Source of the DNA: Clostridium sp.
Lineage (GTDB): Bacteria > Bacillota > Clostridia > Clostridiales > Clostridiaceae
Direction: 5' to 3'
Length of the DNA: 64,000 nt
Assembly (NCBI RefSeq): GCF_016650035.1
Contig: NZ_JAENWM010000004.1
Span: 5,896 to 69,895, forward strand
Positions within the stretch are counted from its first letter, which is position 1. Each line of letters starts with the position of its first letter. A program made the translations under genes and the position numbers. Below the pieces are notes generated by a model. It was given only the letters and a program-made list of their open reading frames with translations, was not told the DNA's origin and searched no databases. Below, in pieces: positions 36,342-43,979 of this stretch.

Positions 36342-36420
36342 TGCTCCTCACGCTCTTTTCTTAGTATAATTAGCAAGTATAATATCATTATACACTTTTT
36401 CATATTAAATTAAATAGTTA

Positions 36421-36681
36421 TTACTCATTTTCCATATTTACCTCACTACCGTCTACAAGGATAACGTCTACACCAATTTTTTTCACTTTTTCCCAAGGTA
36501 TCTCAATACTATTATTCTTATTAAACCAGGATGACTTTATACTTGGGAGTAATATTGAAATAATTCTATAGTCTTCACAGTCAACTCTTAAATCTTTGAT
36601 ATATCCCATTTTAGAACCTGAATTTATATCTATTATTTCCATCTGCCTTAAATTATTAATTGAGTACATTAAGCTTTCCAT
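36421..36681 (-). CDS. ylmC: YlmC/YmxH sporulation PRC-barrel protein
   Basis: EIIDINSG..IPWEKVKKIGVDVILV; downstream of the sigG position. Confidence 0.9.
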   Translation of the reverse strand: MESLMYSINNLRQMEIIDINSGSKMGYIKDLRVDCEDYRIISILLPSIKSSWFNKNNSIEIPWEKVKKIGVDVILVDGSEVNMENE

Positions 36682-36905
36682 TTTTTTCCCTCCTTGTACA
36701 TTTTTATAAAATTGCTTTTCTAAAACAACTAGTCATTAGGCTAGTCTATTTTTTAGTTGGTTATACTATATATTATTTATATTCAATAGCATCTAAAAAT
36801 ATCATTTTAAAATTGAACTTTTTTTTTAAATTGTGTAGCTTAAAACTATAAATTTAGTATTATAAAATAAGTTTACAGAAAAAAAAAGCCCATTTAGAGG
36901 GCCCT

Positions 36906-37451
36906 TTACACACTTCCTAATGAGTTTCGATTAATTCTTTCTACTGTATACCTTCGTTCTTGCAGTGCATCTAAAGCAAATACAATATCTTCTCTAGATA
37001 AGTCTAATTCTTTTGCTATTTGAGATATAGTAGGTTCTTTAGTACTCTTAGCTACTAACATATCTCTAACTTGTAATGCTTTATATGCAATAGTCTTTAA
37101 TGAACTACTTACTCTTATTGGGTTAGTAACTCTTAAATATCTTCTTATTTCGTTAATTATTATAGGAGCTGCATATGTTGGAAACCTAACACTTAGACTT
37201 AAATTGAATTTATAAGCAGCATTCATCACACTAATACAAGCTATCTTAAATAAATCATTTGTGTTTTCTCCCCCGTCATCAAAGCGCTGTATTGCATTTA
37301 AAATAAGTTTTGTATTTGCTTTTATAAATGTTTCTTTACATTCAAAATCACCATGTTGCAATTTAAATAATAACTCATTCATTTCCTCATCTTTTAATAC
37401 TGGCAAATTTGAAGAATTGATTCTACATAATTCTACTTCACTTATCATCAT
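36906..37451 (-). CDS. sigG: Divergent, C-terminally truncated SigG-like sigma factor (no region 4)
   Basis: sigE-adjacent position; SNLPVLK, EIRRYLR, IAYKALQVRD, KEPTISQIAKEL..EDIVFALDA are SigG-like; ends at 181 aa with unrelated RRYTVERINRNSLGSV*. Confidence 0.85.
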   Translation of the reverse strand: MMISEVELCRINSSNLPVLKDEEMNELLFKLQHGDFECKETFIKANTKLILNAIQRFDDGGENTNDLFKIACISVMNAAYKFNLSLSVRFPTYAAPIIINEIRRYLRVTNPIRVSSSLKTIAYKALQVRDMLVAKSTKEPTISQIAKELDLSREDIVFALDALQERRYTVERINRNSLGSV

Positions 37452-37485
37452 AAGGTCATCATCCCCTTCAAAATAATTACATTTA

Positions 37486-37515
37486 AATTATGGCCTTATG
37501 ATTTAATTTTTATAC
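37486..37515 (-). promoter_or_regulatory. SigF/SigG-type forespore promoter of the sigG-like gene
   Basis: GTATA-N15-GGCCATAATT on the minus strand. Confidence 0.65.
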
Positions 37516-37526
37516 TAAAGACAACC

Positions 37527-38234
37527 TTATACCATTTTATTAATTTCTTTTTTCAATCTTTTTATAATTCTTTTTTCAAGTCTTGAGATATAGGATTGTG
37601 ATATTCCAAGAATGTCTGCAACTTCTTTTTGTGTTTTTTCTATGGCTCCATTTAAACCAAATCTTAGTTGAACAATTTCCTTTTCCCTTGAATTTAATCT
37701 CTGCATAGCAAGGCAAAGTAATTGTTTATCTACATCATCTTCAATAACGTTGTAAACCACATCACTATCCGTTCCAAGAATATCTGAAAGTAATAATTCA
37801 TTACCATCCCAATCAACATTTAACGGCTCATAAAAAGAAATTTCTGTCTTGATTTTGCTATTTCGCCTAAGATACATTAAAATTTCGTTTTCAATACATC
37901 TAGAAGCGTATGTAGCTAGTTTGATTTTTTTTTCGGGATCAAATGTATTAACAGCTTTTATAAGCCCTATAGTTCCTACAGAAATCAAGTCTTCAACATT
38001 TACACCTGTATTTTCAAACTTTCTAGCTATATATACCACTAGCCTTAAATTTCTTTCAATTAAGGTGGCTCTAACCTTTTTGTCACCTGTATCTAGTCTA
38101 ACTACTAATTCATCCTCTTCATCCTTAGTTAAAGGAGGCGGTAGTGCATCATTCCCCCCAATATAAAACAAATTTTTTGAAAACATTTTGAGCTTAACAA
38201 ATAACTTGTTTAACACTACATTAAAATTAAACAT
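37527..38234 (-). CDS. sigE: Sporulation sigma factor SigE (pro-form)
   Basis: [47 protein letters not shown]. Confidence 0.97.
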
Positions 38235-38288: not shown

Positions 38289-39092
38289 TTAACTAAGTAT
38301 ACCTATAGACATAAGACCATTATAGTCATTGTCTTTGCTTAGTTTATACTCACAAAAGGCTATAATTACATCTCTTGTTTCAATATTTTTATCAATATGA
38401 ATATTGATATACTGGGGTTTAAACCCTATAAGTTTTCCGCTCATTCCATTTACTACATTATATGGAATGTGGTAGGTGTTATTTTTCTCTAGAATTATCT
38501 CACTTAACATTTCACGTTCAACAATTAATACTGGCAAATTAGTGGCAGGCTCACGAAGCTCATTTCCTGTGTCTAAAAATGCCTTAATTGTTTTTTTATA
38601 ACTCTTATTCACTATATCTATGGTATATATAAGGGTTGATATTTTTTTTCTATCCCCAATAAAAATAACCATTCTATATATGAATATATAAATTATCATT
38701 ACTGAAAGCATTAATTTTTCATAAGGAAAATTAATTACAATTACATTAAATGATGTGTTACTTGAGTTACTCATCGCAATATAAAAACACATTCCTGCTA
38801 AAAGAATAGAATAAAATATAAAGATTAGTGAAGCCTTAATATTGAATAATACATTTTTTTCTCTGAAAACAACTAAAATCATTACAATGACTATTAATAT
38901 TTTAAAAGGTATATATGACAAGTATTTAAGCTTTGGATACACTACTGTTAAAACATATAAGCTGCCTAAAAAACTTGAAAGGCACATCCACATAATGTTT
39001 ACCCTTTTTCTTAATGTTTGAACAGTGATATGCAATATGAATAGATTAACTATAAAATTAACTAGTATAAGAACATCTATATATATTATCAC
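38289..39092 (-). CDS. spoIIGA: Pro-sigmaE processing aspartic protease
   Basis: N-terminal TM helices, AFLDTGNELREP; upstream of sigE. Confidence 0.95.
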   Translation of the reverse strand: MIIYIDVLILVNFIVNLFILHITVQTLRKRVNIMWMCLSSFLGSLYVLTVVYPKLKYLSYIPFKILIVIVMILVVFREKNVLFNIKASLIFIFYSILLAGMCFYIAMSNSSNTSFNVIVINFPYEKLMLSVMIIYIFIYRMVIFIGDRKKISTLIYTIDIVNKSYKKTIKAFLDTGNELREPATNLPVLIVEREMLSEIILEKNNTYHIPYNVVNGMSGKLIGFKPQYINIHIDKNIETRDVIIAFCEYKLSKDNDYNGLMSIGILS

Positions 39093-43250: not shown

Positions 43251-43979
43251 TTATAATTTATTAGTACTATTTATCCTAGTTTTATTGGTATTATTCAATT
43301 CTCTATAAAGCTTTTTCAAAGCCCTTTTTTCAATTCTAGACACATAGGATCTAGAAATTCCTAGAATCAATGCAATTTCTCTTTGAGTTCTAGGGTTACC
43401 ATCGAGTAACCCATAGCGCATTTGAATTATTATTTTTTCCCTATCCATTAACGCTACGTTTATCTTATTATAGAGTTTTTTAATTTGTATCTTATTTTCT
43501 ACTATCTCAATGATAGAATCCTCATCACTACTTAATACATCCATAAGGGATATTTCGTTGCCCTCTTTATCAATTCCAATAGGATCCTGAAGGTAAACTT
43601 CACCTTTAGTTTTCTTATTATTACGAATAAGCATAAGTATCTCATTTTCTATACACCTTGCAGCATAGGTAGCAAGCCTTGTTCCCTTATTTGTATCAAA
43701 GGAATCGATAGCCTTAATAAGCCCCACAGTTCCAATAGATATAAGGTCATCTACATCCTTTCCTGGGTAGGAATATTTTTTAACTATATGTGCAACTAGT
43801 CTTAAATTTCGTTCAACAAGTATTCCTTTAGCTAGTAAATCGCCTTCTTTTAGCTTTGTCAAATATAATTTCTCTTCTTCTTCACATAGGGGCTGTGGGA
43901 ATGAACTACTACCCGTTATATAAGCTGTTAAAAATGTAACATTGGAAAGCATATCTAATAAACAATTCATGAAAAACAC
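43251..43979 (-). CDS. sigK: Sporulation sigma factor SigK, uninterrupted
   Basis: SFPQPL, ERNLRLVAHIVKKY, TQREIALILGISRSYVSRIEK; continuous ORF. Confidence 0.96.
   Translation of the reverse strand: MFFMNCLLDMLSNVTFLTAYITGSSSFPQPLCEEEEKLYLTKLKEGDLLAKGILVERNLRLVAHIVKKYSYPGKDVDDLISIGTVGLIKAIDSFDTNKGTRLATYAARCIENEILMLIRNNKKTKGEVYLQDPIGIDKEGNEISLMDVLSSDEDSIIEIVENKIQIKKLYNKINVALMDREKIIIQMRYGLLDGNPRTQREIALILGISRSYVSRIEKRALKKLYRELNNTNKTRINSTNKL

Follow-up and report, generated by a model that had tools for sequence, protein, structure and literature searches.

In a sigma factor, it is the sigma4 domain that recognizes the -35 element and contacts the beta flap. The gene that stands at the sigG position of a Clostridium sp. 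genome encodes a protein that ends before this domain, which raises the question of whether such a gene is an error of assembly, a remnant on its way to being lost, or a derivative of SigG that is kept for something other than promoter recognition. The locus lies within a stretch of 64,000 nt, referred to here as the window (RefSeq GCF_016650035.1, contig NZ_JAENWM010000004.1, positions 5,896-69,895 of the forward strand); the genome to which the window belongs is labelled G000. A preliminary description of this DNA had noted intact sigE, spoIIGA, ylmC, and sigK genes around the short gene, a promoter and an RBS ahead of it, and a hairpin with a T run after its stop. Open reading frames and family models agree with that description on the neighbouring genes; the motifs GTATA, GGCCATAAT, and GAAGGGG are in place, and the hairpin is found at 36907-36883. 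The features of the locus, in window coordinates, are as follows.

36906..37451, minus strand: open reading frame of the truncated sigG paralog, 181 aa.
36960..37451, minus strand: codons 1-164 of the truncated sigG, comprising region 1.2, sigma2 (regions 2.1-2.4), and sigma3 (regions 3.0-3.1), the selected part; from SigG models, orthologs, and the AF2 model.
36906..36959, minus strand: deletion junctions, non-homologous tail (codons 165-181), and stop; from DNA alignment with full-length sigG.
37486..37515, minus strand: SigF/SigG-type promoter, GTATA (37511-37515), 15-nt spacer, and GGCCATAAT (37487-37495); read from the sequence.
37461..37469, minus strand: RBS GAAGGGGAT, with GAAGGGG at ~37463-37469, before the ATG at 37451; read from the sequence and conserved in truncated and canonical loci.
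36883..36907, minus strand: intrinsic terminator, 9-pair stem and T run, derived from the ancestral sigG; aligns with full-length sigG terminators.
37527..38234, minus strand: sigE, 235 aa, directly upstream of the truncated sigG; NF006158, 425 bits against a cut-off of 339.
38289..39092, minus strand: spoIIGA (pro-SigE protease), upstream of sigE; open reading frame, with Peptidase_U4 (Pfam) in the orthologs at related loci.
36421..36681, minus strand: sporulation gene of the ylmC/ymxH family, directly downstream of the truncated sigG; TIGR02888, 76.9 bits against a cut-off of 44.2.
43251-43979, minus strand: sigK; NCBIfam and open reading frame evidence.

The promoter matches the SigF/SigG consensus. 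The order of the genes, spoIIGA-sigE-sigG-ylmC, is that of the SigG equivalog.

Since G000 is a permafrost MAG of 167 contigs, the missing region might be an artefact of assembly or binning. However, contigs from four separate permafrost run assemblies show 0 differences over window positions 36400-38144, a span that includes the deletion junctions, and nine further sequences, diverged from it and drawn from different projects, have the same architecture. Because the four independent run assemblies agree exactly across the locus, misassembly of the truncated sigG is ruled out, and an artefact of any other sort is hardly conceivable.

The short protein retains a recognizable sigma2 domain (Sigma70_r2, Pfam PF04542, 36 bits against a cut-off of 24). 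Its match to sigma3 is weak (Sigma70_r3, PF04539, 17.8 bits against 25.3); this region aligns to sigmaF residues 112-155 of 1L0O, and its helices are predicted at pLDDT ~87-91. Region 4 (sigma4, PF04545) gives no Pfam match in the short protein, and its coding DNA has been deleted. The NCBIfam SigG models cover the protein at model positions 1-171 of 258 only, and its description as a 181-aa sigma factor without region 4 holds. The protein does not reach the cut-offs of the SigG equivalog models (TIGR02850 and NF006071): it scores 213.3 bits where 457 are required and 213.9 where 372 are, so that its 213-214 bits are under half of the higher cut-off. The three region-2 motifs that had been reported as altered are present as quoted (GNLRLV to ANTKLI, DDLFQVGCIGL to NDLFKIACISV, and STYAVPMIIGE to PTYAAPIIINE). 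In the AF2 model, residues 20-165 are folded (pLDDT ~70-93) into the expected helical sigma2 and sigma3, with residues 20-110 of sigma2 spanning the same range of pLDDT (~70-93), and the tail, residues 165-181, is disordered (pLDDT <50). A structure search with the predicted fold returned sigmaS, SigA, and SigB, which are sigma chains of holoenzyme structures, at probability 1.0, and the closest solved relative is sigmaF in complex with SpoIIAB (1L0O).

A six-frame search of G000 with the SigG model revealed a canonical sigG at C115:2148-2921 (257 aa, 488 bits against the cut-off of 457). This copy carries the canonical GNLRLV, DDLFQVGCIGL, and STYAVPMIIGE, and its product shares 58% of residues 1-165 with the short protein. 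Upstream of the dispersed sigG is the same promoter cassette that is present at the sigE locus, down to the bases just past the stop codon of sigE, and the two genes have terminators of the same kind. The shared cassette, together with the bases from beyond the sigE stop, shows that the dispersed sigG arose by segmental duplication; in addition, the presence of the same cassette on both copies leads one to expect that the dispersed and the truncated sigG are co-transcribed. Purifying selection on the dispersed sigG is very strong, with an omega of 0-0.016 in G000, G020, and G022. The preliminary description had offered two alternatives, either that a full-length sigG lives elsewhere and the short copy has become a decoy or competitor, or that late sporulation has been rewired or is being lost. 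The premise of the first is confirmed by the C115 copy. The second is not supported, as the dispersed sigG has the same promoter and an omega of 0-0.016; with a canonical sigG under such strong constraint, the loss of late sporulation was rejected.

The way in which the short gene arose can be read from a DNA alignment of the sigE-to-ylmC interval with the corresponding interval of those genus members in which the sigG at this place is still full-length. Two gaps, of ~127 and ~99 nt, are common to G000, G020, and G022 and remove regions 3.2-4.2, and the same layout of relics is seen in four further metagenomic loci, which are those with alignable downstream DNA. What is left of the deleted part is ~18 nt of the start of region 4.1, ~35 nt of the sigG 3' end, and the original terminator. 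Consequently, the earlier statement that no region-4 remnant precedes ylmC has to be corrected at the DNA level, where the ~18-nt and ~35-nt relics exist. The residues after 164-165 (166-181) are translated from these relics, out of the ancestral frame, and the C-terminal tails vary by lineage: RRYTVERINRNSLGSV, TKVYSRKN, IKM, or none, with protein P0002 stopping right after Q164. A sigG gene split by an inserted element, in the style of sigK and skin, was also considered and rejected: ylmC is at its normal place, and the missing DNA has been deleted rather than displaced. A six-frame search of G000 found no orphan fragment of SigG region 4.

These events can be placed in order with a protein tree built from 66 SigG copies, taken from the genus and from metagenomes. 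The sigE-adjacent copies are basal, and those that are dispersed group in a clade of their own (99/92). Ten truncated proteins make up one clade (100/100) with a stem of 0.32 substitutions per site, and this clade nests among the sigE-adjacent copies, after the full-length but progressively divergent copies P0007, P0010, and that of G010. The truncated clade is inside the SigG clade and apart from SigF, whose branch has a length of 1.84. Since the divergent full-length copies precede the truncated clade, divergence began before the domain was lost. Taken together, the alignments and the tree show a history in which a segmental duplication was followed by divergence of the sigE-adjacent copy and then by two deletions that removed regions 3.2-4.2. 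Judged in this way, the short protein is SigG by descent, by locus, and by promoter, yet it fails the tests that define the family, namely the score and the sigma4 domain. NCBI and JGI annotation labels these short proteins "sporulation sigma factor SigG", and the sporulation gene content of such genomes is therefore misstated. Literature searches turned up no earlier description of a SigG that is truncated or lacks region 4.

Ten distinct truncated orthologs, 64-90% identical to the window's protein, have been identified: three (G000, G020, and G022) in a set of 30 species genomes that cover the genus and seven on metagenomic contigs. All are directly after sigE, with ylmC next wherever the contig reaches, and their carriers are uncultured or little-studied Clostridium lineages of permafrost and sediment or cold soil, sampled by different projects. 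(It should be noted that these seven were found as called proteins, so that broken copies may have been missed; in the six-frame genome search, which is free of this bias, three of three truncated copies are open. A scan of metagenome contig DNA with the clade alignment matched only canonical SigG genes, at <=64% identity, and thus did not enlarge the unbiased sample of truncated loci. G014, a close relative, was left out of the scoring, as its contig ends in the intergenic DNA upstream of ylmC.) Other species have dealt with the sigE-adjacent copy differently. In G041 and G045, this sigG has been cleanly deleted along with its promoter, such that sigE leads into ylmC after ~96 nt and a terminator-like relic is left.

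L252, G041:C1:600827-600924: clean deletion locus in G041.
G045:C39:9067-9163: clean deletion locus in G045.

In G024 (L148, G024:C136), the sigE-adjacent sigG is broken by a 5' deletion of the -10 element and ~75 codons and by a 2-nt frameshift. A single genus therefore presents an evolutionary series of canonical, divergent full-length, truncated yet maintained, broken, and cleanly deleted genes. The genus can dispense with the sigE-adjacent copy, and because other species have deleted or broken it, dispensability stays a live rival to any function proposed for the short gene.

In all ten truncated genes, the 164 codons are open and contain 0 indels. The value of omega is 0.336 under MG+F3X4 (LRT against omega = 1, 69.4; p=8e-17) and 0.383 under GY+F1X4, where omega = 1 is again rejected (p=1e-12). 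When neutral evolution was simulated along the inferred tree, with substitutions held at or below the observed number, all ten frames remained open in 0 of 4000 runs, and ~1 of 10 was open on average. The 64 nt from promoter to RBS have a mean identity of 94.8%, and the promoter within them is near-invariant in the ten truncated and the canonical loci; third codon positions, the most variable of the three, are at 78.6% identity, and the relic and intergenic DNA downstream, with several indels, is at 74.3%. Selection on the truncated sigG falls far short of that on real sigma factors (omega ~0.35 versus 0.01-0.09), given values of 0.01-0.03 for sigE in G000, G020, and G022 and of 0.087 for the canonical sigE-adjacent sigG, and nonsynonymous evolution is ~20-fold faster than in the canonical copy. 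The marks of a pseudogene, which are stops or frameshifts in the retained part, a neutral omega, and decayed expression signals, are absent, and pseudogene-like behaviour is limited to the 3' relic past codon 164. By these measures of codon and promoter conservation, the short gene is evidently maintained by selection and is not freely decaying. It had been said to look maintained, and an omega of 0.34-0.38, ten open frames of ten, and a conserved promoter support that impression; strain-specific decay, which the preliminary description had named among the refuting outcomes, is contradicted by the deletions that the lineages share, by an omega well below 1, and by the lack of stops in ten lineages.

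The same body of data bears on the idea that the gene is a functionless relic, slowly decaying en route to the deletion seen in other species, a reading that we regard as quite unlikely. The significance of omega <1 (p 1e-12 to 8e-17), the absence of any stop or indel in ten lineages, where ~9 of 10 should have been broken under neutrality, and the conservation of promoter and RBS while the adjacent relic DNA gains indels are all difficult to reconcile with it, as is a constraint that is unequal between the domains (see below). On the other hand, the sigE-adjacent copy has repeatedly been lost or broken after the duplication (G041, G045, and G024), the C-terminal tails are junk, and the rate of change is strongly raised, with a stem of 0.32 and truncated copies that are 58-70% identical where the neighbour genes are 97-99% identical. 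Furthermore, omega was already ~0.2-0.3 in the full-length intermediates, before the truncation, and is ~0.3 on the stem branch, where distance subtraction gave no sign of an adaptive burst.

It is also conceivable that the DNA or RNA is conserved rather than the protein, for example as a SigF/SigG transcript that reads through to ylmC or as a regulatory 5' region. The promoter and 5' UTR are the most conserved stretch (94.8%), and ylmC follows 225 nt downstream of the truncated sigG on the same strand; however, a strong terminator stands between the two genes (terminator-like hairpins were found at 2 sites, against a chance expectation of 0.2). Selection at the level of amino acids, evident from omega <1, from the variability of position 3, and from the lack of frameshifts, would have no explanation on this account, and G041 and G045 deleted the promoter along with the gene. 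Conservation of the nucleic acid alone is thus highly improbable.

If it is the protein that is selected, then the distribution of constraint along it should indicate what it is selected for. Omega is 0.20 for aa 2-40 (the N-terminus), 0.39 for aa 41-88 (regions 2.1-2.2), 0.63, which is not different from 1, for aa 89-120 (2.3-2.4 and the start of 3.0), and 0.32 for aa 121-164 (3.0-3.1, the sigma3 helix-turn-helix). Positions that are invariant in canonical SigG and variable in the truncated clade are mainly 100, 107-108, 114-120, and 127, which we assign to regions 2.4 and 3.0 by alignment to sigma70; on this alignment, the relaxed segment is presumably the one that reads the -10 element and its extended form. 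The residue that we take to be the equivalent of sigma70 Q437 is number 100, which is N, E, or G in the truncated copies. In contrast to these variable positions, IKANTKLIL (region 2.1) and EPTISQIAKEL..ED.VFALD (region 3.1) are invariant across the truncated clade, and 17 of its invariant residues are clade-specific replacements, which include fixed changes in regions 2.1-2.2. Such a distribution suggests that selection no longer acts on DNA recognition but does act on protein-protein surfaces and the fold.

The pattern also bears on whether the protein might still work as a sigma factor, either at -35-independent (extended -10) promoters or with a separate protein that supplies region 4. Such uses have precedents: extended -10 promoters reportedly support initiation by E. 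coli sigma70 without region 4.2, and SigO-RsoA is an example of a split sigma factor. The sigma2 and sigma3 domains of the short protein are folded in the AF2 model and are selected, and within them R103 is invariant and Y93 is kept in ten of ten truncated copies. However, constraint is lowest in the very segment that should contact the -10 and extended -10 elements, at an omega of 0.63 that is not different from 1, and the Q437-equivalent position varies among N, E, and G. A partner gene is likewise lacking nearby: the neighbours are sigE and ylmC, and in the genome the only short frames resembling region 4 are an ECF fragment, a start-less frame, and YlxM, and no split-sigma partner was found. 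Given the relaxed -10-reading segment and the failure to find a partner gene, a working sigma is disfavoured, and we consider it unlikely though deserving of mention.

The mechanism that we propose starts from a protein of ~165 aa that keeps sigma2 and sigma3 and has been preserved by selection in at least ten lineages. Because the SigF/SigG-type promoter has been retained, the short protein would be expected to be made in the forespore together with SigG; a search for RNA data from G000 and G020 returned DNA runs only. There it would no longer act as a promoter-specific sigma factor; rather, it would be a mimic of SigG that competes for the partners of SigG and SigF, the candidates being SpoIIAB, CsfB, and/or core RNA polymerase, and such competition would tune the timing or the level of SigG activity. 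That the gene encodes a maintained SigG mimic without sigma4, co-expressed in the forespore and competing for partners, is a reading in which our confidence and our doubt are about evenly balanced. With a normal sigG present at another place in the genome, the role of the short copy is probably to tune sporulation, not to direct transcription. The more specific proposal, that the mimic soaks up SpoIIAB and/or CsfB or blocks core RNA polymerase unproductively and so adds a new layer to the SigF-to-SigG switch, is put forward tentatively, as one that could well be wrong.

What is known of the candidate partners can be compared with what the short protein retains. The Gln of the DLFQ motif, a core-binding residue in region 2.2 of the sigma70 family, is K or E in the truncated clade; this change may weaken core binding, which would count against the version in which the mimic competes for core. 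For the anti-sigma factors, studies in Bacillus have shown that CsfB targets the first 77 residues of SigG, in region 2.1, and that the region 3.1 substitution E156K renders SigG refractory to SpoIIAB (PMC3174212, PMC5890618). In our alignment, E156 of B. subtilis SigG corresponds to D155 of the short protein, which is invariant, and the known Bacillus determinants for SpoIIAB and CsfB all map inside the retained part, within the stretches where its constraint is strongest. G000 encodes SpoIIAA, SpoIIAB (205 bits against a cut-off of 135), and SigF, as well as a homolog of Gin/CsfB (PF10764) at C142:60157-60291 on the minus strand (61 bits against 27), for which there was no matching NCBIfam model. 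Residue 44, the equivalent of Bacillus N45, is E in 33 of 43 dispersed canonical copies, K (9) or N (2) in the sigE-adjacent full-length copies, and K in all ten truncated copies. In Bacillus, CsfB sensitivity is set by N45/E39. Because the N45E substitution in Bacillus SigG lowers CsfB binding (PMC3174212), the dispersed and sigE-adjacent lineages may differ in their sensitivity to CsfB.

Comparison with known systems helps to define what kind of protein this would be. Like SigG itself (SpoIIIG; TIGR02850 / NF006071), it falls inside the SigG clade of the genus, occupies the position between spoIIGA-sigE and ylmC, has the same SigF/SigG-type promoter, RBS, and terminator, and is 58% identical in sigma2 and sigma3 to the genome's own SigG; unlike SigG, it is short, without regions 3.2-4.2, carries clade-specific changes in regions 2.1-2.2, and coexists with a canonical copy elsewhere. 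The sigma70 without region 4.2 that is said to have been engineered by Kumar et al. in 1993, and that reportedly binds core and initiates at extended -10 promoters, is likewise a sigma without its -35-reading domain. However, that protein is a laboratory construct of a housekeeping sigma, whereas here the truncation is natural, the 3.2 linker is also gone, and the expected -10 reader is under the weakest selection. SigO-RsoA of Bacillus subtilis, a split sigma that needs an adjacent, co-evolving partner gene, resembles the present case in that sigma functions are divided and one polypeptide is without a normally needed domain, but no adjacent partner gene was found at the truncated sigG locus.

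By analogy, the nearest known thing in working principle is the sigma-factor mimicry practised by PhyR. In the PhyR-NepR-EcfG system of the alphaproteobacterial general stress response, the sigma-derived PhyR binds the anti-sigma factor and frees the real sigma (PMC4551977, PMC4598750). The likeness extends only to this principle of a sigma-derived mimic; anti-sigma binding by the short protein is a candidate activity. PhyR consists of an ECF-like sigma2-sigma4 portion and a receiver domain and is switched by phosphorylation, whereas the short protein is a group-3 sigma2-sigma3 fragment; no receiver domain was found in it with Pfam or NCBIfam, and it is therefore not a member of the PhyR family. 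Extra SigF/SigG-like sigma genes carried by phages lower spore yield (PMC9429907), and they share with the truncated sigG that extra proteins of the SigF/SigG family are proposed or have been shown to perturb the sporulation sigma cascade. Those genes are phage-borne, in contrast to the short sigG, which is chromosomal, at its native locus, and vertically inherited, and neither truncated forms nor region 4 are mentioned in the text of that paper (PMC9429907).

It remains a matter of debate, particularly for Clostridia, how the forespore keeps SigG inactive and later releases it. If the proposed mechanism is correct, then a selected SigG derivative that is blind to the -35 element and shares the promoter of SigG would add a new kind of player to this switch, and it would provide a natural case in which a sigma factor becomes a regulator through the loss of a domain after gene duplication.

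Several other observations concern the sporulation sigma genes of this genus more generally. Many species have two to four sigG paralogs, for example G022 (C55, C88, and C210 in addition to the truncated copy), G023 (C42, C44, and C18), and G003 (C28, C43, and C40). The dispersed copies form one clade, the native promoter cassette has been kept in the four that were examined (G000, G020, G022, and G010), and several adjoin a sigK-like gene whose product is 44-48% identical to SigE. G000 itself has two SigK paralogs that are 83% identical, one in the window (43251-43979, minus strand) and one at C122:16797-17534 (plus strand), the latter just downstream of a gene for a Spo0A-like response regulator.

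Away from sigE, there is a further clade of divergent full-length SigG paralogs (100/100, stem 0.25) that are ~70% identical to canonical SigG; it comprises L140 (G019:C54), L141 (G015:C42), L142 (G003:C40), L144 (G005:C1:3666228-3666725), L145 (G008:C20), and L146 (G001:C3). The last of these is on a 45.7-kb contig of a four-contig assembly, and this contig may be a plasmid or phage. G013 has a second sigE-sigG-ylmC locus, L147 (G013:C24), with a SigE that is 68% identical to that of the window and a SigG at the base of the tree; since the estimated contamination of G013 is 6.5%, this locus is probably from another organism in the bin. Upstream of ylmC, at ~36764-36786 on the minus strand of the window, TTGAATATAAATAATATATAGT is near-invariant in truncated and canonical loci, in the midst of variable intergenic DNA, and is probably the ylmC promoter. 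Finally, the SigG of one genus member is identical, over the parts compared, to the SigG that NCBI names as that of Clostridium bowmanii.
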